A stretch of 64,000 nt of DNA, taken from an uncultured Gammaproteobacteria bacterium (GTDB taxonomy: Bacteria; Patescibacteriota; Patescibacteriia; CAZGFX01). Of this stretch, positions 38,076 to 63,510 are shown in pieces. The translations under genes and the position numbers were made by a program. The stretch covers positions 163,281 to 227,280 of the forward strand of contig CAZGFX010000001.1 of assembly GCA_964524845.1 (NCBI GenBank). The letters are read 5' to 3'. Under the pieces are notes generated by a model, which was not told the origin of the DNA, made no database searches, and saw nothing but the letters and a program-made list of their open reading frames with translations. How positions within the stretch are numbered: the stretch's first letter is position 1; the number at the start of each line of letters is the position of its first letter.

Positions 38076-38268
38076 TTCTTCGCTCGTTAGAGTGAAATTA
38101 CGAACGATATAACTATAAGAATTTATTCTACAAAGCATTTTTGCTTTGTTTTTTTGTGCTAAATTAAGCCTTTTTATATATTATTCAACCATACTATTGA
38201 CTTTTCTGTAAGTGTATGATATTATCATACGATTAAAACAAAACCAAAATAAAATAAGGAGAATTGAA

Positions 38269-38982
38269 ATGAAAAAAGTTCATGCTCAAAAAACAGAAGA
38301 TGAACCGGATGTTAAAAAACTTTTTCCTTTCGTGTTTTTTCTTGAAAAAACAACGCCTGTTCTGGGAAAAAAATCGACCCCTGGCACTGAAACACACGCG
38401 ACAGCAACAAAACACGAAGGAGTTCCAGATTGGAAAGAGGAAGAAGACAGTTATTTAAATTTTATCAAAAAAAATACCACGCAGTTTGTTCCAATCGAAG
38501 AATGTGGTGATTCACCAGAACAAACAGTTCTGGAAAAAATAGACAAGCTTTTCTTTCTTCGGAGTCTCGCATATTCGTCAACAAAAAATCATGAGGCAAA
38601 AAAAATCATTGAGCACATGATACACGATCTTGCCGAATACGAAGACCTTCTTTCCTTTGTGGATTATATGAAAACGGAAAATATTGGATCGTTTTTAAAA
38701 AATCCTCAACTGGCACAAGAGATAATCTGTATATACAATATTCTTCAAGTGTATGCCATCGAAAACGATTATATTAATACATTTGAGAAAGTGGATCTAA
38801 AAAACGTAATGTATGAATTGAAGAAAGGTTCCACAAAAACCAGTAAGAACAAGCCCGCTCGAAAAAAAACACAAAAAATCAATTGCGGCCACAAAAACCA
38901 ACAACCACAAGAGAAAAGCGGTGTATGGGGAAAGAAAAAAAATAAAAATTATCACCTCGCAAAAAAATCACTTTTATTTTAA
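38269..38982 (+). CDS. Hypothetical protein sharing a PDWxEEEDSY motif with the small gene at 49766..49963
   Basis: Strong RBS AAGGAG 8 nt upstream of the ATG at 38269; VPDWKEEEDSYLNFIKKN motif; Lys-rich tail; terminator hairpin follows at ~38990-39020. Confidence 0.6.
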   Translation: MKKVHAQKTEDEPDVKKLFPFVFFLEKTTPVLGKKSTPGTETHATATKHEGVPDWKEEEDSYLNFIKKNTTQFVPIEECGDSPEQTVLEKIDKLFFLRSLAYSSTKNHEAKKIIEHMIHDLAEYEDLLSFVDYMKTENIGSFLKNPQLAQEIICIYNILQVYAIENDYINTFEKVDLKNVMYELKKGSTKTSKNKPARKKTQKINCGHKNQQPQEKSGVWGKKKNKNYHLAKKSLLF

Positions 38983-47767: not shown

Positions 47768-48325
47768 TTACTCCGGTTTTTCTTTGGTTTCAGTGCCGGG
47801 TATAATAGGTTCTGATCCATATATAAGGGCATGTGAAGACCAAAAAGAAACAGACTCTTCTTTTTCTTTAGGATCAAGACAACTATACGGTTCTCGTGGA
47901 GCACAATGACCAATAAAAGATGTTTGCAGTATAAAATCTTTTTCTTTTCTACTTAGAATAACAGTTATCGTATCCGTTGGTATTGCCTTTCTATTTTTTA
48001 CAAAACGAGTAAGTCCACGACGGTTTTGTCGTTGTGCAAATACAATTTCATCGGTATCGTTTGTTGGAATACAAACGCTTTCTCCTATTAATTTATCATG
48101 TTTTATTTCTTCTATAATATAATCTCTTCCATTAGAGTATATTTTTTTTAATAGATCAGAAATTATATTTTTCACGTTTTCATGAAGATGACTCCCTTCA
48201 ATAAGATCAAGAACTTTTTCACCTGAGCCCAAAAAACCAATTGTATATTTTGGCGCTTCTTTTAATTCATCTATATGACTCTTTGTTTTTTTTATATCCA
48301 AAGACATAATATTTATAATTAACAA
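47768..48325 (-). CDS. Hypothetical protein
   Basis: 185-aa ORF, first gene of the minus-strand run with the HD, NTase and Wzy-like genes. Confidence 0.45.
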   Translation of the reverse strand: MLIINIMSLDIKKTKSHIDELKEAPKYTIGFLGSGEKVLDLIEGSHLHENVKNIISDLLKKIYSNGRDYIIEEIKHDKLIGESVCIPTNDTDEIVFAQRQNRRGLTRFVKNRKAIPTDTITVILSRKEKDFILQTSFIGHCAPREPYSCLDPKEKEESVSFWSSHALIYGSEPIIPGTETKEKPE

Positions 48326-48394
48326 CTTAATAACTATATTATATAAAAAAATTAAAATCTCTGCTATTTATAAGCAGAGATTTTTTATAATTGT

Positions 48395-48420
48395 GGAGGT
48401 ACCGGGAATCGAACCCGAGT
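48395..48420 (-). other. Orphan tRNA 3' fragment (T-arm + acceptor 3' strand: CGGGTTCGATTCCCGGTACCTCCA), no matching 5' half
   Basis: Reverse complement of 48395-48420 is a canonical T-stem-loop plus acceptor strand. The upstream ~75 nt cannot form the rest of a tRNA. A bidirectional terminator hairpin (TCTCTGCT-atttata-AGCAGAGA) lies at 48354-48386. Confidence 0.6.
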
Positions 48421-48453
48421 TTTGAAAAAAACAACTTATTTCAGTTGTTTTTA

Positions 48454-48485
48454 TAAAAAAATCCCATTGCCTGTTTACAAGCAAT
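48454..48485 (-). terminator. Rho-independent terminator of the repeat-protein gene (CCCATTGC-N10-GCAATGGG followed by U-run on the minus strand)
   Basis: 8-bp perfect stem just past the stop at 48502, followed by ATTTTTTTAT. Confidence 0.55.
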
Positions 48486-48501
48486 GGGTTGTTAGATGTG
48501 T

Positions 48502-49110
48502 CTATACTTTTTTCATCATTCTTTCGAAAACGTTTTTTTCTAATTCGCTTCCTGATGGTGTTTTGTCATAGATATATCTTAATTCATCAAATGTTAATTT
48601 TTCAAAAAAACGTTCTGGCAAATCTTCATAGAAAACAACAGATGCTAATCCTAAGCCAAAGTTTTTTTTAAGCTCATTAAATTTTTCTCTCTTTTCATAA
48701 TCTGATTTATTTATATAAAGTGTATGTTTAAGTTTCATTATATTTTCTAAAGCAAGTCTATTTAAAACAATCCTGGATTTAGATTGATCGTAAACAAATA
48801 ACCACTCGTCAAATGTCTCAGCAAGCTCCGACATTTTTTCTAAAGCCAATTCTTTTAAAGATTTTTTAAATACACAATATTTGTAAATAAATTTCCATTC
48901 ATTAAATGTCTCAGCAAACTCCGACATTTTTTCTAAGGCCAATTCTTTTAAATCCCTTTTAAACCCAGAATATTTGTAAATCAACTTCCATTCACCAAAT
49001 GTTTTCTTAATCTCTGACATTTTCTCTGAAGCTTCTTTTTTCAAATAGCTTCCGGATTGAGATTTGCTATAAATCAAAAACCATTCATCAAAACTTTTTG
49101 TGTTTCCCAT
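48502..49110 (-). CDS. Small tandem-repeat protein (about five ~30-aa FxEWxxIYKYxxFKxxLKELALEKMSExAET repeats)
   Basis: Start trimmed to the ATG of MGNTKSF, which has a GAAGGAT RBS. The tracked TTG start (MVGKK..) lies inside the shared upstream repeat. Confidence 0.6.
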   Translation of the reverse strand: MGNTKSFDEWFLIYSKSQSGSYLKKEASEKMSEIKKTFGEWKLIYKYSGFKRDLKELALEKMSEFAETFNEWKFIYKYCVFKKSLKELALEKMSELAETFDEWLFVYDQSKSRIVLNRLALENIMKLKHTLYINKSDYEKREKFNELKKNFGLGLASVVFYEDLPERFFEKLTFDELRYIYDKTPSGSELEKNVFERMMKKV

Positions 49111-49233
49111 AATTATATCCTTCTTTTCTTTTTTAATTTTTTTTCCAACCAAGAATTGGCTGGTGTTTATTTTTCTTATTCACTCCCCGATCAGTATGAC
49201 CGATCAGGAAGTTGAAAGAAATTTAAAATAAAA
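49111..49233 (-). promoter_or_regulatory. Shared upstream module, copy 1 (direct CCGATCAG repeats, CCAAC..GTTGG palindrome, AT-rich block, RBS)
   Basis: ~85% identical to the modules at 49648-49765 and, in part, 49964-50078. Confidence 0.6.
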
Positions 49234-49647
49234 TTATTTCCAATTCCTTATTTGTCCGTCTGCTGTTTGATAAACAACAATACCTTCATCAGAAACACTT
49301 ATAATCTCTTCTATGTGTTTTTCTTTTGCATAATAACCATTGTTGTTTGTTGAAGATATTTGATATTTTTCGAATGATGTTTCTTTTTTTTGTGGCTCAT
49401 CAGTTCGAAAATCAAAAATAACCAAAGCATTATAATCTTCGCTTCTTCCTTCGCAACTTGCATATGGTGTTACTGAAATACCTTTATAAGTTGTGTACAT
49501 TCTGAGCTTAATAAAAGCCATATACTTTCCGTTTGGCGAAGCAGTAAAGTCGTTAGCAAGCCAAGTATCACAATGTGACACATCGCTTACATACAAAGAT
49601 TTGAAATATTTTAAAATTTCTTCTTTAAAATCTTCTAATGTTAACAT
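49234..49647 (-). CDS. Small hypothetical protein (137 aa)
   Basis: Start trimmed to MLTLEDF (AAAGGAG RBS 7 nt upstream); unrelated in sequence to its neighbours but shares the same 5' module. Confidence 0.55.
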   Translation of the reverse strand: MLTLEDFKEEILKYFKSLYVSDVSHCDTWLANDFTASPNGKYMAFIKLRMYTTYKGISVTPYASCEGRSEDYNALVIFDFRTDEPQKKETSFEKYQISSTNNNGYYAKEKHIEEIISVSDEGIVVYQTADGQIRNWK

Positions 49648-49765
49648 ATATTTTCTCCTTTTTTTCTTATTTAATTTTTTTCCAACCAATAAATAGTTGG
49701 TGTTTATTTTTCTTATTCACTCCCCGATTAGTATGACCGATCAGGAAGTTGAAAGAAAAATTATT
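49648..49765 (-). promoter_or_regulatory. Shared upstream module, copy 2 (contains the palindrome CACCAACTATTTATTGGTTGG)
   Basis: See copy 1. The palindrome CCAAC-N9-GTTGG is the best operator candidate. Confidence 0.6.
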
Positions 49766-49963
49766 CTAACACCAAGAATCCAAAAATATTTCACCAACAT
49801 GTGTGGTTTTATAATTTTGTATAATATTTTTTTCAGAATTCTTGTTTAAAAAAAACACATACGAGTCTTCTTCGTCAGACCAGTCAGGAAGGCCTTCGTT
49901 TTCTATTGATATCGCGTGTTCATTCCTTCCACAAACAGGACCATACCCGTCTTTGTTTTTCAT
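49766..49963 (-). CDS. Small hypothetical protein (65 aa) with an LPDWSDEEDSYVFFLNKN motif
   Basis: Start trimmed to MKNKDGYG (AAAAGGAG RBS); the motif is shared with the protein at 38269..38982. Confidence 0.5.
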   Translation of the reverse strand: MKNKDGYGPVCGRNEHAISIENEGLPDWSDEEDSYVFFLNKNSEKNIIQNYKTTHVGEIFLDSWC

Positions 49964-50078
49964 TTGTTTTCTCCTTTTTTTCTTATTTAATTTTTTTCCA
50001 ACCAATAAATAGCTGGAGTTTATTTTTCTTATAAAGTCCTCAATCGTTTTTAGCGATTGAGGAGTATAAAGTAAATAA
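49964..50078 (-). promoter_or_regulatory. Shared upstream module, copy 3 (partial; it diverges into a different hairpin CCTCAATCG-tttttag-CGATTGAGG)
   Basis: The first ~45 nt are identical to copies 1 and 2. The distal part is replaced by a 9-bp-stem hairpin that probably terminates the upstream gene. Confidence 0.5.
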
Positions 50079-50924
50079 TTATTTTTTTAAAATATTCACT
50101 ACCGCGTTTGCCAAATCACGCGGACTGACCTTCGATTCTGTCGTTGCAGGAGCTTTTCTCGAACCACGGCAGTAAAGAAATCCGGCAGAGTGAGCAAACC
50201 ACTCACTTTCTTCTCCTGCATTTTTGACCACGGCCTGAATATCAGGATGATCCATTCGCAGGTTTTCATCGCTATTTCGAGTAACACCGAGGTTGTTGCC
50301 ATCGACAAAAACGATTACACGAATATTCTTCTCTTCGAACAAGATTCCGTTCGTCGCAAATTCTTTCGAATTTTTGACAATTGCAACCATATTATCAATA
50401 ATCTCGGCTTTCTCAGCATCTTTCCTTGCTCTTTGACGAGCACGACCTGCGATGAGCAAACCGGAGAAGATTTCAGACATTCTTTCAACGACCATGGCGT
50501 CGTTGTTTTTATAAAACGCCTGAAACGCACGCAAAACAGCATTTATGGATGTCGCGCTAAATACTTTTTGCGAACAATCGTCCGCAATCTCAGGAGCGAG
50601 AAACTTTATTGCGTTACCGTAAGCATCTTGCGCGTCTACGAACTTAACCAGGTTTTCAAGTACCATCTGATCATCCGTTGACGCGTATTGTTTTACGATA
50701 CTCACGAAACTGGAATGCACTATACCTGAACCGGTTTTTTCTCCCTTTATTCCTTTTCCTCCTGCACCGATATCAACCGCAATATCATTTTCAGTCATTC
50801 CTGATCCGTCCCAGTTAGCTGGTTTGTGTTCAACCGCTGAATTTTTTTGTCCGGGAACGAACTCTCTTACCGCCCAGACGGACGCAACGGCGTCCAAATC
50901 AACGTTTACATGGGTAAATATCAT
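50079..50924 (-). CDS. Hypothetical protein with a DHH-family motif-I-like N-terminus
   Basis: N-terminus IFTHVNVDLDAVASVW resembles DHH motif I (HxNPDxDAxGS) of NrnA/PPase-type phosphoesterases. The other DHH motifs are not evident, so assignment is weak. Confidence 0.45.
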   Translation of the reverse strand: MIFTHVNVDLDAVASVWAVREFVPGQKNSAVEHKPANWDGSGMTENDIAVDIGAGGKGIKGEKTGSGIVHSSFVSIVKQYASTDDQMVLENLVKFVDAQDAYGNAIKFLAPEIADDCSQKVFSATSINAVLRAFQAFYKNNDAMVVERMSEIFSGLLIAGRARQRARKDAEKAEIIDNMVAIVKNSKEFATNGILFEEKNIRVIVFVDGNNLGVTRNSDENLRMDHPDIQAVVKNAGEESEWFAHSAGFLYCRGSRKAPATTESKVSPRDLANAVVNILKK

Positions 50925-50962: not shown

Positions 50963-51118
50963 TTATGATTTATACCCTGTCGACACAATACTCAACTCAT
51001 TAGTTTTCTGACGGCGAAATTTACGGTGCGCCGTCTTTTTGTGCATGGATTTTACCTTTCTTGATGCGTGTTTGCACGCTTTACAATTACAAGATTTATA
51101 CGGATTAAAATTATTCAT
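50963..51118 (-). CDS. Possible small basic Cys-containing protein (51 aa)
   Basis: GGAGATAA RBS 5 nt upstream of the ATG; sequence MNNFNPYKSCNCKACKHASRKVKSMHKKTAHRKFRRQK..; below the ORF-track cut-off. Confidence 0.3.
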   Translation of the reverse strand: MNNFNPYKSCNCKACKHASRKVKSMHKKTAHRKFRRQKTNELSIVSTGYKS

Positions 51119-51320
51119 TCTTATCTCCTTTTTTTATTTTATTTTTCCTTTTTCTTGTCCATCCCTCAAATATTGCTTTTAAGGGATAAGAAGATAAAGG
51201 ACATGACTCTTTTTTTAATCTTCATATCAGTATATCAAGTAGTTTTATTTTGTCAATATTTCATAGCAATCTTGTGTTTAGGTCTATTTTCAGCGATTTT
51301 CTTACTATTTCTATATATAA

Positions 51321-51349
51321 TTGACAAACTTATCCACATGTTATATACT
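51321..51349 (+). promoter_or_regulatory. Near-consensus sigma70 promoter (TTGACA-N17-TATACT) for the TrmB-like regulator gene
   Basis: The tracked ORF begins at the TTG of this -35 box, which is why its first 17 codons are rejected as coding. Confidence 0.5.
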
Positions 51350-51371
51350 TCCTTTATATGAAAGTTCAAAT

Positions 51372-52145
51372 ATGCCAGTAAAAAAACACATTATTACACC
51401 TTCTGTTGAGGAGATTCTTATAAAAATAGGACTCGAAGAAGAGGAGGCTGTTGTATATAACTATCTTTTACAAAACCCGTGGAAAAAAGCGACTGTAATT
51501 GCAGATGATTGTTCTATTAAAAGAGGGTCTATATATAATATTTGCGATAGACTAGAAAAAAAAGGAATTATAATCACAAAACCTGATACCAAGGTAAAAG
51601 AATACAATGTAGCAAACCCGGAGAATCTTTCGTCTCTTATACATAATGAGGAATCTTTATTACAAATAAAAAAAGATTCTCTATCTGTTAATATTTCTTT
51701 GTTACATAATTTGTATAATAAAAACAACGGAGCTCCATACATGCACTATTTTCCTGGTATTAATGGAATTAGAACAGCGTTTGACATAATATTGAAAGAT
51801 AAACCAAAATTAATAAAAGAATGTTACGTATATCTTGATAACTATGATATCACTGATCTGTTTGTTAATTATTATGTTCCGAGAAGACAAAAAACACATA
51901 TAAAAACACTTCTACTTTCATATGAGGATAGCAAAACTGATAAAAAATATGATGAAAAAAACAATATTATTAGAAAAATATTACCAAAAAATAAAATACC
52001 ATTTGAAACATTTATGTTCGTGTATGATGATACGCTTATTCATTTTAATACGAATACTTTTATTGGTGCGACGTATATAAAAAATTCTGCTATTACGAAA
52101 AACATGCATATTCTATTCGATCTAGCTTGGAATTCTGCAAAATAA
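51372..52145 (+). CDS. TrmB-like winged-helix transcriptional regulator
   Basis: N-terminal HTH region (EEAVVYNYLLQNPWKKATVIADDCSIKRGSIYNICDRLEKKGII) typical of the TrmB family; C-terminal effector-like domain. Confidence 0.6.
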   Translation: MPVKKHIITPSVEEILIKIGLEEEEAVVYNYLLQNPWKKATVIADDCSIKRGSIYNICDRLEKKGIIITKPDTKVKEYNVANPENLSSLIHNEESLLQIKKDSLSVNISLLHNLYNKNNGAPYMHYFPGINGIRTAFDIILKDKPKLIKECYVYLDNYDITDLFVNYYVPRRQKTHIKTLLLSYEDSKTDKKYDEKNNIIRKILPKNKIPFETFMFVYDDTLIHFNTNTFIGATYIKNSAITKNMHILFDLAWNSAK

Positions 52146-61458: not shown

Positions 61459-63510
61459 ATGATGAATAAAACACATCGAAAAACCAGAACTCAAGTATAT
61501 AAACGAGAACATGGTACGGAAGGAGTTGTTCATAAAAAACCAATATCCGATTCCACACAAGAAACAAATCAATTAGTGTCACATGAACGAGATAAGGTTA
61601 ATCGTCCTTTGGCCGGAACAACAAAAAGAATTTCTCTTAAAGAAGTTTCGCGAGACATAAAAAAGAATCGTCCTCATCAATACGAACGACAAGGTGCGAA
61701 AAAATCTCACGATCCGAAACGCCATGGCGGACGATCTTTCAGTAAACCAAACCCGATGATGGACGCTGTGAAAGCACGTTCAAGAGGAGGTAGTCTTTTA
61801 AATTCCCCGATTGCTCCGAGAACACAAGTTAAACATCAGTTTCATAAAGATAAGCTCCGTGTTATTGTCGTCGGCGGAAATGAAGAAGTCGGACGAAACT
61901 GCACGTTTATCGAATACGAGAATGATATTATTGTCATTGATCTTGGTATTCAGTTTGCGGAAGAAAACATGCCAGGAATCGATTATATCATCCCGAACAT
62001 AAGCTATCTTCATGGACGCGAAAAGGACATAAAAGGAGTGATTATTACTCATGGTCATCTTGATCATATAGGAGCTATTCCACATATTATGCCGCGTATA
62101 GGCAATCCACCAATATACGCTACACCACTAACAATGGGACTTATACAAAAAAGGCATGACGATTTCCCGAATATTCCACCTTTGAATGCTCAAATGGTAA
62201 AACGAGGAGGGACAATCAAACTTGGTGTATTCACAATAGAGTTTTTCGGTGTCAGTCATAACATACCTGATGCCATGGGACTTATTATACATACGCCCGT
62301 TGGTATCATAGTCCATACTGGGGATTTTAAAATTGATCTTACACCAGCAGGAGATGTTCCTCCCGATATGGCGCGTATAGAACAACTTGGAAATGAGAAG
62401 GTGCTCGCGCTCATGGCGGATTCAACAAACGCATCAGCCCCGGGACATCAATTTTCAGAAACGCAGATTAAGGGAAACATGGAAGAAATCTTTCAAGGAG
62501 TAATGGGCAGACTTATTATAGGTACGTTCGCTTCAAACATAGGACGTGTTCAGCAAATAATTACACTTGCTGAAAAATATAAGAGAAAAGTTCTCATACA
62601 AGGATATAGTATGAAGACAAACATCGAGGTCGCACACAAGCTCGGTCATATTAAATATGAAAAAAACACTGTTATAAGCGAGCAAGATTTGAAAAAAGTT
62701 CCTGATAACCAGCTTCTCGTTGTTTGTACCGGTGCTCAAGGAGAGGCAAATGCCGTACTCATGCGCGTAGTCAACGAAGAACATAGATTTTTGACTATTC
62801 AACCTGGAGATACTGTCGTATTTTCATCGTCTGTCGTTCCTGGAAATGAGCGCACAGTACAAAACCTTACTGATTCACTATATAGGAAGGGTGCGCGCGT
62901 CATTAATTATAAAATGATGGATATTCATGCTGGAGGACACGCAAAACAAGAAGATTTGAAACTCATGCTAAATATGATCAAACCGAAATACCTTATTCCA
63001 ATAGAAGGAAATCACTCTTTTCTTCATCATCATCGTGAAGCTGCAGTCACTTCTGGCTTCCCTTATGAACGCGTATTCATAGCTGATAACGGACAAGTTA
63101 TCGAATTTGATAAAGGAAACACTGGATATTTAACTCTTGAGAAAGTTCCATCTGACTATGTTTTCGTTGATGGGCTTGGTGTCGGAGATGTTTCAAATAT
63201 CGTACTCAGAGATCGCGAAGCGCTCGCACAAGACGGAATGTTTGTCGTAATTGCTGTCGTACAATCTTCAAACGGCAGACTCGTCGGAAGTCCTGATATT
63301 ATTTCACGTGGATTTATTTATATGAAAGACCAACGTCAACTTATAGAAGAAGCTCGCGACAAGGTTCGTGAAATCATAGGACAAGATGATCCTCGTATGA
63401 AAGCAAACGGAGAATATATCAAAAACAAGATTAGAGATGATATAGGTCTCTTCCTGTATCAACACACATTACGCCGACCAATGATACTCCCTGTAATTAT
63501 TGAGGTTTAA
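61459..63510 (+). CDS. rnj: Ribonuclease J (metallo-beta-lactamase / beta-CASP / RMMBL) with ~120-aa basic N-terminal extension
   Basis: HxHxDH motif VIITHGHLDHIGAIPH; beta-CASP motifs; C-terminal domain. The N-terminal K/R-rich tail is unusual. Confidence 0.9.
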   Translation: MMNKTHRKTRTQVYKREHGTEGVVHKKPISDSTQETNQLVSHERDKVNRPLAGTTKRISLKEVSRDIKKNRPHQYERQGAKKSHDPKRHGGRSFSKPNPMMDAVKARSRGGSLLNSPIAPRTQVKHQFHKDKLRVIVVGGNEEVGRNCTFIEYENDIIVIDLGIQFAEENMPGIDYIIPNISYLHGREKDIKGVIITHGHLDHIGAIPHIMPRIGNPPIYATPLTMGLIQKRHDDFPNIPPLNAQMVKRGGTIKLGVFTIEFFGVSHNIPDAMGLIIHTPVGIIVHTGDFKIDLTPAGDVPPDMARIEQLGNEKVLALMADSTNASAPGHQFSETQIKGNMEEIFQGVMGRLIIGTFASNIGRVQQIITLAEKYKRKVLIQGYSMKTNIEVAHKLGHIKYEKNTVISEQDLKKVPDNQLLVVCTGAQGEANAVLMRVVNEEHRFLTIQPGDTVVFSSSVVPGNERTVQNLTDSLYRKGARVINYKMMDIHAGGHAKQEDLKLMLNMIKPKYLIPIEGNHSFLHHHREAAVTSGFPYERVFIADNGQVIEFDKGNTGYLTLEKVPSDYVFVDGLGVGDVSNIVLRDREALAQDGMFVVIAVVQSSNGRLVGSPDIISRGFIYMKDQRQLIEEARDKVREIIGQDDPRMKANGEYIKNKIRDDIGLFLYQHTLRRPMILPVIIEV

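Follow-up and report, generated by a model that had tools for sequence, protein, structure and literature searches.

Three small genes lie in tandem in a 64 kb stretch of Patescibacteria DNA (64,000 nucleotides, the window below), and each follows a copy of the same short module. What does such a module do, and how did it come to stand before three unrelated genes? The sequence-only reading had answered with a mobile promoter carrying a palindromic operator. We examined the module as DNA and as RNA, and we found that most features fit a transcribed leader better.

Module copies and the genes behind them

The array and the gene upstream of it are arranged as follows, in the direction of reading.

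50079..50924, minus strand: gene of a 281-aa conserved Patescibacteria protein, directly upstream of the array
49964..50078, minus strand: module C (copy of about 115 nt, 50075..49961), the entire gap from the stop of the 281-aa gene to the ATG of gene C; 125 bits with covariance model R1
49766..49963, minus strand: gene C, 65 aa, host-like codon usage
49648..49765, minus strand: module B (copy of about 115 nt, 49759..49645), the entire gap from gene C to gene B; mosaic
49234..49647, minus strand: gene B, 137 aa, its first ~25 codons resembling those of gene A at the DNA level
49111..49233, minus strand: module A (copy of about 115 nt, 49222..49108), the entire gap from gene B to gene A
48502..49110, minus strand: gene A, 202 aa, with four tandem 31-aa (93-nt) repeats, predicted helical
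38383..38484, plus strand: block paralogous to gene C, within the gene 38269..38982, which has its own canonical promoter (~38198) and no module

The stop-to-ATG gaps before the three genes measured 115, 118 and 123 nt and were filled completely by the module, which nhmmer detected in the three copies with E = 1e-28 to 1e-32. The arrangement first described, three tandem small genes each behind a copy of one 5′ module of about 100 bp, was thereby confirmed. No further copy at this level was found by nhmmer in the 64 kb, and all module copies found there were confined to one 2.1-kb locus; neither terminal inverted repeats nor target duplications spanning the module were found. The upstream regions had also been called near-identical; the ungapped values were 83% (A-B), 81% (B-C) and 69% (A-C), and the likeness of A and B also entered the coding sequence. 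Other details of that description applied to part of the copies: an identical ribosome-binding block was shared by B and C but not by A, the direct repeat CCGATCAG x2 was exact in A, degenerate in B and absent from C, and the CCAAC-N9-GTTGG palindrome was exact in B, but A and C read CCAGC.

Module B was a mosaic, with its 5′ half about 97% identical to A and its 3′ 72 nt 94% identical to C. At the informative sites A equalled B in columns 17-72, B equalled C in columns 78-124, and A again resembled B in the first 75 nt of the CDS. The likeness of A and B over these ~75 nt amounted to 36/63 matches against a null of 19.2 +/- 3.8, and 0.02% of the null registers reached 36. This is the sequence pattern left when recombination or gene conversion, with end-points that vary, spreads copies and evens out their differences: B is A-like at the 5′ side and C-like at the 3′ side, and the A/B homology enters the CDS. 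Of the proposed mobile promoter, the discrete shared 5′ cassette with signs of recombination (mosaic copies) therefore stands, but the promoter part gained no support. As a separate observation, gene conversion alone, without selection, could hold the module copies alike.

Through pairwise comparison we found no significant similarity among the A, B and C proteins, so the three products are unrelated, as had been claimed. Gene C matched only itself among 1.84 billion representatives and gene B only itself among 5.8 billion proteins; gene A had one weak match (26% identity), whose gene context showed nothing related. Sequence searches of Pfam, PHROGs, NCBIfam and PDB gave no match for A, B or C, and the AlphaFold models were poor (mean pLDDT 46.8 for B and 54.8 for A) and unfit for fold searches. 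One relationship pointed out earlier, a PDWxEEEDSY motif common to C and the protein of 38269..38982, was confirmed by BLASTP (E 4e-11, 17/38 identical in a 38-aa block), and the two genes showed 76% nucleotide identity over 55 nt. The G+C content of the array was 0.28-0.30. A foreign origin based on this low value was rejected, since the TrmB-like gene described below has just as little G+C, and A, B and C show host-like codon usage.

A GGAG/AGGA Shine-Dalgarno (SD) sequence was located 7-8 nt before each ATG. We consider this ATG, and not an upstream TTG, the true start, because of the SD spacing, the position of the TTG inside the second hairpin of the module (HP2, below) and the database proteins of 202, 137 and 65 aa. 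The shared N-terminus obtained by translating from the TTG is accordingly spurious, as already suspected, and when coding starts inside the module were considered, the starts proved to be the ATG at the module end.

Beyond the window the module was not met with. The 64 kb yielded three copies and one diverged copy (below), but scans with the module core (AAACNCCANCNANTTNTTGGTTGGAAAAA; AAGAAAAATAAAC-N8-14-TTGGTTGGAAA, exact or degenerate) gave 0 matches in GTDB genomes, IMG/VR and JGI metagenomes, collections that do not contain the source genome, so that comparison with other genomes lends the module no support. Among phage and plasmid records, BLAST of the array returned marginal A-rich matches only and no significant phage DNA match. 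Extra genomic copies, considered on account of Logan contig breaks inside C and A, were dropped, since 31-mers shared among the local copies suffice.

The genes downstream of the 281-aa homologues differed in every relative examined (5), and two of the five had serine recombinases beside a tRNA. The closest relatives reached through this neighbour (~63% protein identity) contained no module and no analogous repeats. The other end of the locus is marked by a tRNA-like fragment.

48394..48419, minus strand: orphan tmRNA/tRNA-Ala-type 3′ end, with T-arm and acceptor strand, U70 and discriminator A

A permissive Rfam scan gave a sub-threshold tmRNA match on this fragment, and no intact partner was found in the window. 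We rejected an att duplicate of a window tRNA, as none matched the fragment within 3 mismatches. The fragment is a probable attachment-site relic. The window further encodes UvrA, UvrC, RNase J, tRNAs and conserved Patescibacteria genes, and relatives of the lineage encode RNase Y.

Hairpins, linker and ribosome-binding site

On the sense (minus) strand the module is composed, from 5′ to 3′, of a first hairpin (HP1), the A-rich linker AUAAGAAAAAUAAAC, HP2, an unstructured A-rich tract, the GGAG SD and the ATG.

50037..50063, minus strand: HP1 of module C, 10 bp, all Watson-Crick, in the same register as HP1 of A and B
49720..49748, minus strand: HP1 of module B, with one internal mismatch
49183..49211, minus strand: HP1 of module A, 13 bp including 3 G-U
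50018..50032 (C), 49702..49716 (B) and 49165..49179 (A), minus strand: linker AUAAGAAAAAUAAAC, an invariant, A-rich, single-stranded 15-mer
49997..50017, minus strand: HP2 of module C, the former "palindrome", CCAGC..GUUGG with G-U
49682..49700, minus strand: HP2 of module B, the sole exact CCAAC-N9-GTTGG
49145..49163, minus strand: HP2 of module A, 8 bp, CCAGCCAA/UUGGUUGG

For each of the three modules, the predicted fold comprised the same pair of sense-strand hairpins and left the SD unpaired, and the z values of the whole modules ranged from -3.8 to -6.2. The direct repeat CCGATCAG turned out to be the two arms of a hairpin, because CUGAUCGG self-pairs through G-U. Across the three copies 92% of the stem cells paired in register, compared with 21-54% when the partners were slid. 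The stem changes comprised 2 double-compensatory pairs and 5 one-sided changes of the wobble type. In HP1 of copy C all 7 stem differences were transitions and 10/10 pairs were kept (P ~8e-4 under random substitutions, 0.09 under a transitions-only null), and the non-stem differences of this region were mostly transversions; these covariation statistics rest on three sequences.

The changes within the palindrome (A to G opposite U, C to U opposite G) broke the DNA symmetry and kept the RNA pairing. They all fell in the arm that tolerates transitions, and the 3′ arm of HP2 was invariant. In five of the six hairpins the sense strand folded far more stably than the antisense strand, with sense/antisense values of -20.6/-8.0 (module A) and -14.9/-6.2 kcal/mol for HP1, and -10/-5.3, -8.2/-5.3 and -10/-2.2 kcal/mol for HP2. 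The intrinsic-terminator scan called neither HP1 nor HP2, whose tails (AGUGAAUA, ACUUUAUA, AAAAAAAU) had no U-tract directly after the hairpin; HP1 of copy C was followed by a partial U-tract (ACUUUAUA). The modules had no match in Rfam 15, at the gathering threshold or at E <= 5.

Transcription of the array

51229..51256, minus strand: promoter with extended -10, TTGACA-16-TGaTATACT (11/12), proposed for orf51-281aa-C-B-A
51119..51197, minus strand: leader of orf51, a diverged fourth module-like copy (the R1 match, 51116..51197, takes in the ATG)
50963..51118, minus strand: orf51, 51 aa, basic and Cys-rich, first gene of the proposed operon
48420..48488, minus strand: two consecutive hairpins that end the array (48488..48463 and 48459..48420)

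Canonical promoters of the form TTGAC(A/T)-16/17-TG-n-TAT(A/T)(A/C)T were evident in the window at 51256-51229, 51321-51349 and ~38198. Modules A and B contained no usable sigma70-like -35/-10 pair of at least 8/12 in a scan for consensus pairs, though a non-canonical or -10-only promoter may be present in the module; their best score of 7/12 was the lowest among 43 intergenic regions. Module C had one weak promoter-like site just before HP1 (TTTAAA-17-TATACT, 9/12), and 35% of random windows score as high. At the other end, 48488..48463 was called by the scan as a canonical intrinsic terminator with U-tract after gene A, and 48459..48420, read directly from the sequence, is an inverted repeat followed by a T run.

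With a strong promoter upstream, no internal promoters or terminators found and terminators after gene A, we infer, only from these consensus scans, that A, B and C are co-transcribed with orf51 and the 281-aa gene. The 9/12 site and the partial U-tract at HP1 of copy C mean that the 281-aa gene may instead end its own transcription unit there.

The leader of orf51 matched R1 with 36 bits (E 2.6e-4), against 23 bits or less for all remaining leaders of the window. Present in it are the 5′ motif, a hairpin where HP1 would stand and the A-rich/SD tail; the 29-nt block of linker and HP2 is missing. The similarity is modest (nhmmer E 0.97; covariance-model E ~3e-4 with a rough calibration), and part of it comes from the A-richness common to ribosome-binding regions in general. 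As it lies downstream of the canonical promoter 51256-51229, this fourth copy is a transcribed leader, and the module was probably derived from it, the operon's own diverged leader without HP2.

Competing explanations and possible meaning

We tentatively consider the ~115-nt module a transcribed RNA leader or intercistronic cassette, which recombination spread to positions before the orphan genes that close the orf51-281aa operon, and not a promoter with operator; our confidence in this comes close to an even chance and stays a little below it.

Regulatory cassettes called PeSLs (promoter-early stem-loops) are found in T4-type phages (Arbiol et al. 2010, PMC2839356; PMC4122927), where they are defined by a strong sigma70-like -35/-10 promoter (PMC2839356; PMC4122927). 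The modules might be autonomous cassettes of this kind, with HP1 as terminator or attenuator, a promoter off the sigma70 consensus and the SD, so that each orphan gene forms its own transcription unit and recombination between modules inserts, deletes and shuffles orphan genes as in the hyperplastic regions of T4-type phages. We regard this as unlikely. Like PeSLs, the module spans about 100 bp from stop to ATG, with a stable stem-loop, an A/T-rich tract and an SD immediately before ORFans in a variable region (PMC2839356), and its copies recombined at variable points into chimeras, the mosaic being the trace of past recombination between modules. The 9/12 site in copy C agrees with it, and so does a weak covariance-model alignment that sets the -35/-10 of the 38269 promoter over the module 5′ end and the HP1 loop. 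However, the defining promoter was not detectable in A and B and the site in C is at chance level, although this genome shows clear canonical promoters in other places; U-tracts are missing from the hairpins; and the module has two hairpins and an invariant linker instead of one stem-loop. The host context is a CPR bacterial chromosome (UvrA, UvrC, RNase J) and not a T4-type phage, the module-like leader of orf51 lies downstream of its promoter, and with three copies (plus one diverged) we found no evidence of mini-circles or strain-to-strain shuffling and no strain variants with other cassette content.

A neutral by-product, in which recent local segmental duplications are kept alike by gene conversion and the hairpins are ordinary end-of-gene structures, seems about as unlikely to us. 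The mosaic and the A/B homology that runs into the CDS are the expected trace of unequal recombination or gene conversion, the module occurs at one locus only in the 64 kb, and the covariation loses significance under the transitions-only null. But the coding sequences are unrelated in sequence and length while the gaps are 69-83% identical, and neutral decay predicts the opposite. The stems also carry only transitions that preserve pairing, against transversions at neighbouring unpaired positions, neither the 15-nt linker nor the HP2 3′ arm varied, and the SD is unpaired in all copies.

The model proposed at first is now very improbable. In it, CCAAC-N9-GTTGG is an operator within a promoter, and a dimeric regulator, for which the TrmB-like protein encoded 1.3 kb away is a candidate, binds there and governs a small regulon of effector-like genes.

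51372..52145, plus strand: TrmB-like regulator gene, divergent, 257 aa as called, with its own promoter at 51321..51349

That such a gene lies nearby was correct (PF01978, E 3e-10), so a regulator of the TrmB family with an HTH is close by, and every copy has the inverted repeat in one constant place with respect to its ATG. But the palindrome is exact in 1/3 copies, with changes that spare RNA pairing and not DNA symmetry, the antisense strand forms a much weaker hairpin, A and B offer no promoter on which an operator could act, the fourth copy is transcribed, and the 64 kb holds no further sites. The promoter region of the regulator itself (51119-51371), where the operator of such a factor would usually recur, contains no CCAAC/GTTGG site and carries a different inverted repeat, 51249-51270/51307-51328, which spans both -35 boxes of the divergent promoters; this speaks against the TrmB-like protein as the dimeric regulator of the module. 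It could still control A, B and C indirectly, through the operon promoter.

Least probable of all, and to us barely credible, is a boundary of mobile DNA (integron attC-like sites, or a MITE/Correia-type miniature element between genes): co-oriented small unrelated genes with imperfect palindromes between them and a variable locus ending in a tRNA-like att relic recall it, but the attC cores (RYYYAAC / GTTRRRY) are unmet in A and C (CCAGC), the palindrome has 19-21 nt against at least ~57 nt in attC, the repeat precedes each gene with none after the last, no integrase was found among ~36 window ORFs scanned, and break-points are variable instead of site-specific, without terminal inverted repeats or target duplications. 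Integron cassette arrays share with the locus an upstream promoter and genes that are often orphans, but their attC sits at the cassette 3′ end and the module on the 5′ side of its gene. The REP/BIME elements of enterobacteria, BOX and RUP of pneumococcus and Correia of Neisseria are scattered through a genome in tens to hundreds of copies, with no fixed relation to the start codon that follows. They resemble the module as intergenic repeats that form RNA hairpins and can be co-transcribed and affect mRNA stability or processing; the module differs in including a ribosome-binding site, in its restriction to one 2.1-kb locus in 64 kb and in having no terminal inverted repeats.

Under the RNA-leader reading that we favour, orf51, the 281-aa gene, C, B and A would be transcribed together from the 51256-51229 promoter to the terminators at 48488-48420, and each module would provide its gene with an independent, strong and structure-free ribosome-binding site. 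A probable role of the two hairpins is to insulate or stabilise single cistrons: after a cut in the A-rich linker, HP1 would cap the new 3′ end of the upstream RNA and HP2 the new 5′ end of the downstream RNA, and candidate nucleases are at hand in RNase J (window) and RNase Y (relatives of the lineage). In B. subtilis the cggR-gapA mRNA is processed by RNase Y. Stem-loops between the genes of the Ruminiclostridium cellulolyticum cip-cel operon serve both to signal cleavage and to stabilise RNA ends (PMC10311766). The present locus is similar in that hairpins between co-oriented genes flank a single-stranded A/U-rich stretch and in the Gram-positive-type RNase set of the lineage. It differs in that the stem-loops of such operons vary from gap to gap, whereas the module is one near-identical repeated cassette.

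The cassettes would thus front lineage-specific orphans at a variable locus that ends in the tmRNA/tRNA-Ala-like 3′ fragment. A further reading, speculative and in our view improbable, is that this is a chromosomal counterpart of PeSL shuffling, in which a recombination-competent leader cassette captures, duplicates and at once expresses lineage-specific coding fragments at the operon tail; a reduced CPR genome would then have in this locus a small "orphan-gene nursery". The captured fragments would be the 31-aa repeats in A, the A-derived first codons in B and the block of the 38269 gene in C.

The case is a small one, with three copies and one diverged copy at a single locus without relatives, and the practical outcome is an annotation corrected from operator/promoter to RNA leader, not a new class of system. 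The compact element of ~70 nt (hairpin, linker, hairpin) is suited to RNA-processing tests in an organism with RNase J/Y. If our reading is true, a streamlined CPR/Patescibacteria genome gains and expresses new lineage-specific genes without giving each its own promoter or regulator: it reuses one RNA leader, with stabilising hairpins and a strong ribosome-binding site, which homologous recombination has spread. The principle of "regulatory cassette plus ORFan", so far from T4-type phages, would then reach the bacterial chromosome and the post-transcriptional level.

Three genes behind copies of one spacer

Three genes follow one another in direct succession, all array features lying on the minus strand:

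49766..49963, minus strand: gene C, 65 aa
49234..49647, minus strand: gene B, 137 aa
48502..49110, minus strand: gene A, 202 aa

The spacers ahead of C, B and A (115, 118 and 123 nt) each consist throughout, from the stop of the preceding gene up to the ATG, of one module copy, with ungapped identities of 83% (A-B), 81% (B-C) and 69% (A-C). A profile of the three copies recovered them at E 1e-28 to 1e-32 and revealed no further copies at comparable level elsewhere in the 64 kb, and proteins A, B and C showed no significant pairwise similarity. The core observation of the sequence-only reading, a near-identical 5' module ahead of three mutually unrelated products, is correct, and the feature is real and neatly structured.

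Some details of that description needed correction. The palindrome CCAAC-N9-GTTGG is exact in copy B, while copies A and C have CCAGC; the direct repeat CCGATCAG x2 is exact in A only and absent from C; and the RBS block, described as identical, is so between B and C and not in the other pairs. On the sense strand the two CCGATCAG units are both arms of one hairpin, because CUGAUCGG self-pairs via G-U. The A/B similarity extends past the ATG, where 36 of the next 63 nt match (19.2 ± 3.8 in other registers), a value attained by only 0.02% of null registers. The N-terminus shared from an upstream TTG had been suspected to be spurious, rightly: this TTG has no SD and falls within the 3' arm of the second module hairpin (HP2). 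GGAG/AGGA stands 7-8 nt 5' of each ATG, and the proteins recorded in the databases are 202, 137 and 65 aa long.

Protein B matched only itself among 5.8 billion proteins and protein C only itself among 1.84 billion representatives; protein A gave a single database match at 26% identity, and Pfam, PHROGs, NCBIfam and PDB searches were negative. Codon usage of the three ORFs is host-like in frame (+0.18 to +0.23 bits per codon) and scores negative in the other frames, and ORFs A and B are much longer than stop-free runs of shuffled sequence; therefore A, B and C are real, lineage-specific genes. Structure predictions were too uncertain to be used. Protein A is composed of four tandem 31-aa units (F-[DGN]-E-W-x2-[IV]-Y...; 48790..49068, minus strand), and the 93-nt DNA period, with units 61-84% identical to the reference copy, suggests that the gene may have grown recently by internal repeat expansion. 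The motif noticed between protein C and the protein of 38269..38982 (plus strand) was confirmed as a common block of 38 aa or ~75 nt at 38383..38484 (plus strand; BLASTP 4e-11; 76% nucleotide identity over 55 nt); the latter gene has no module and adjoins tRNA-Met.

Predicted RNA structure of the module

Every copy takes an identical sense-strand fold (z = -3.8 to -6.2). From 5' to 3' it comprises a first hairpin of 10-16 bp (HP1), the invariant linker AUAAGAAAAAUAAAC, HP2 of 7-8 bp, which corresponds to the palindrome, and an unpaired A-rich tract holding the SD. HP1 of copy C differs in sequence and keeps exactly the register of the other copies. Compared with copy A, its seven stem differences are all transitions and 10 of 10 pairs are kept, with both partners exchanged in two (C-G to U-A and G-C to A-U) and G-U turned into G-C in three more; differences at adjacent unpaired positions are mostly transversions. 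The probability of all these pairs being kept is ~8e-4 for random substitutions and 0.09 for transitions only. Pairing cells reached 92% in register, versus 21-54% with partners slid. In HP2, the substitutions are all in the C/A arm, where transitions yield G-U pairs, and the G/U arm is invariant across copies.

Five of the six hairpins are far more stable on the sense than on the antisense strand (HP1 of A, -20.6 versus -8.0 kcal/mol; HP2 of C, -10.0 versus -2.2 kcal/mol). Strand symmetry would be expected of a DNA palindrome that binds protein. The asymmetric pattern seen here points to RNA structure, and we regard it as evidence that the module is constrained as RNA in the sense transcript.

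Proposed transcription map and a fourth module-like site

The signals around the array, together with the gene opening the proposed operon, are the following:

51256-51229, minus strand: canonical promoter TTGACA-16-TGaTATACT (promoter scan)
51321-51349, plus strand: canonical promoter TTGACA-17-TATACT of the TrmB-like regulator gene (promoter scan)
Ahead of the 38269..38982 gene, plus strand: canonical promoter TTGACT-17-TGaTATTAT (promoter scan)
50963..51118, minus strand: orf51, 51 aa, basic, four Cys (CNCKACKH...), strong SD, structured leader
48488-48463, minus strand: canonical terminator with U-tract, 3' of gene A (scan)
48459-48420, minus strand: second hairpin then T run (read directly from the sequence, not from the scan)

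Canonical promoters stand out readily in this genome. No recognisable promoter or terminator was found inside the repeated leader. Modules A and B contain no -35/-10 pair of at least 8/12 in usable position, and with a best score of 7 they rank at the bottom of 43 intergenic regions. In copy C, TTTAAA-17-TATACT stands immediately 5' of HP1 and scores 9/12, which 35% of random windows likewise reach. No U-tract follows HP1 or HP2, and the module was rejected as a canonical terminator. From this pattern of promoters and terminators, the simplest map would be one unit running from the promoter at 51256-51229 through orf51, the 281-aa gene (50079..50924), C, B and A to the terminators.

orf51, which would open the operon, has no family match. 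When a covariance model of the module was run without filters across the window, copies A, B and C scored 125-135 bits. A fourth site, the orf51 leader (51116..51197), scored 36 bits (E ~3e-4, a rough value), and the best unrelated leader reached 23 bits. In the orf51 leader the UUaUCUU 5' motif is present, as are the UG-A-AAGA junction, the A-rich/SD tail and, in the place of HP1, a hairpin of 10-12 bp; the 29-nt linker and HP2 block is absent. The site lies ~30 nt 3' of the -10 box and is therefore a transcribed leader; this favours the RNA-leader view of the module and suggests that the module may derive from the operon's own leader. HP2 is confined to the internal copies, which would fit a role at internal, processed 5' ends. 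Separately, within 38197..38271 (plus strand) a hairpin overlaps the -10 box of the 38269..38982 gene, and this region aligns weakly with the model (23 bits).

Recombination, mechanism and known systems

Informative sites are sharply mosaic across the modules. In the HP1 segment A equals B (97% over columns 1-59) and C deviates; from HP2 to the ATG B equals C (94%) and A deviates; beyond the ATG A again resembles B (57%). Tandem duplication followed by divergence does not account for unrelated coding regions of 65, 137 and 202 aa behind 69-83% identical spacers; exchange among the modules by recombination or gene conversion, its end-points varying, does. Two Logan contigs of the same strain terminate within modules C and A, for which local repeats alone would be enough.

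The 281-aa protein has 174 homologs (closest ~63-65% identical), and the few with a source name are labelled Patescibacteria/Moranbacteria. Genes downstream of its homolog differ in all five relatives examined, and in two of them serine recombinases lie there next to a tRNA; by this comparison the locus is variable, and the position beside this gene is a recurrent integration spot. In these loci (L003, 8939..10883; L006, 2231..5302) serine-recombinase genes or fragments and small ORFs lie between the homolog (62-63% identical) and a tRNA (Ala or Met) with its 3' end toward the insertions. One further feature marks the array terminus:

48394..48419, minus strand: orphan 26-nt tmRNA/tRNA-Ala-type 3' end (T-arm and acceptor strand, U70, discriminator A)

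It lies immediately past the hairpins closing gene A, scored 22.8 bits with Rfam tmRNA (below threshold) and has no intact tRNA/tmRNA partner in the window. Integration sites usually leave such an orphan tRNA-type 3' end behind, and the fragment is probably a relic attachment site. Just past it, a 185-aa protein (47768..48325, minus strand) matches phrog_23674, a phage family of unknown function (E 5e-19), and nothing in Pfam or NCBIfam.

What the array presents is a repeated sense-strand two-hairpin leader with free SD, in mosaic copies ahead of orphan genes. We tentatively propose, at somewhat less than even chance for the whole, that C, B and A would be co-transcribed with orf51 and the 281-aa gene, that each module would supply strong, independent translation initiation, and that the hairpins would insulate the cistrons or make them more stable. 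Cleavage within the A-rich linker is a plausible route, which would cap one product at its 3' end with HP1 and the other at its 5' end with HP2. The window encodes RNase J (61459..63510, plus strand; beta-CASP and RNase_J_C domains) and two relatives (L007, L015) encode RNase Y, thus the lineage has a Gram-positive-type mRNA decay toolkit. Such putative processing would resemble the selective RNA processing and stabilisation of the cip-cel operon (PMC10311766), and processing or stabilising intergenic stem-loops would be the mechanistic likeness.

In architecture the module comes nearest to the PeSL cassettes of T4-type phages (PMC2839356): these too span ~100 bp between stop codon and ATG, contain a stem-loop and an SD, stand ahead of ORFans and recombine between copies; however, the defining strong sigma70 promoter and the phage context are both missing here. 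The window is bacterial chromosome, as its genes for UvrA, UvrC, RNase J and tRNAs show. Promoter/terminator cassettes of the PeSL kind, their promoter being non-canonical, are unlikely here. The window's 866-aa protein at 40984..43584 (plus strand), with MVP_shoulder (E 2e-27), Vault_3 repeat (4.5e-9) and Band_7/SPFH domains, is by domain content a major-vault-protein-like gene in a Patescibacteria genome.

A neutral relic of duplication and gene conversion would agree with the mosaic copies and has the retained HP1 pairs against it; we consider it rather improbable. The mobile promoter with palindromic operator proposed by the sequence-only reading has the palindrome in its favour, but modules A and B are without a sigma70-like pair and the pairing is of RNA type on the sense strand, which leaves it very improbable. 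The TrmB-like gene (51372..52145) is divergent from the proposed unit, the back-to-back promoters occupying 51229..51349, and a 22-nt inverted repeat (51249-51270/51307-51328), unrelated to the module hairpins, spans both -35 boxes; this repeat is a more plausible operator for the regulator than the module palindrome. An attC- or MITE-type element is most improbable, the repeated stem-loop being its resemblance and an integron attC having been rejected. The module matches no Rfam family, and the class of dispersed REP-like repeats is not assignable from a 64-kb window.

The interpretation is to be changed: on the tentative leading reading, recombination would have spread the module as a cassette that serves as an RNA leader. 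So far as the evidence reaches, the module is confined to one locus of one lineage, and what is new here would be a variant on known element types.
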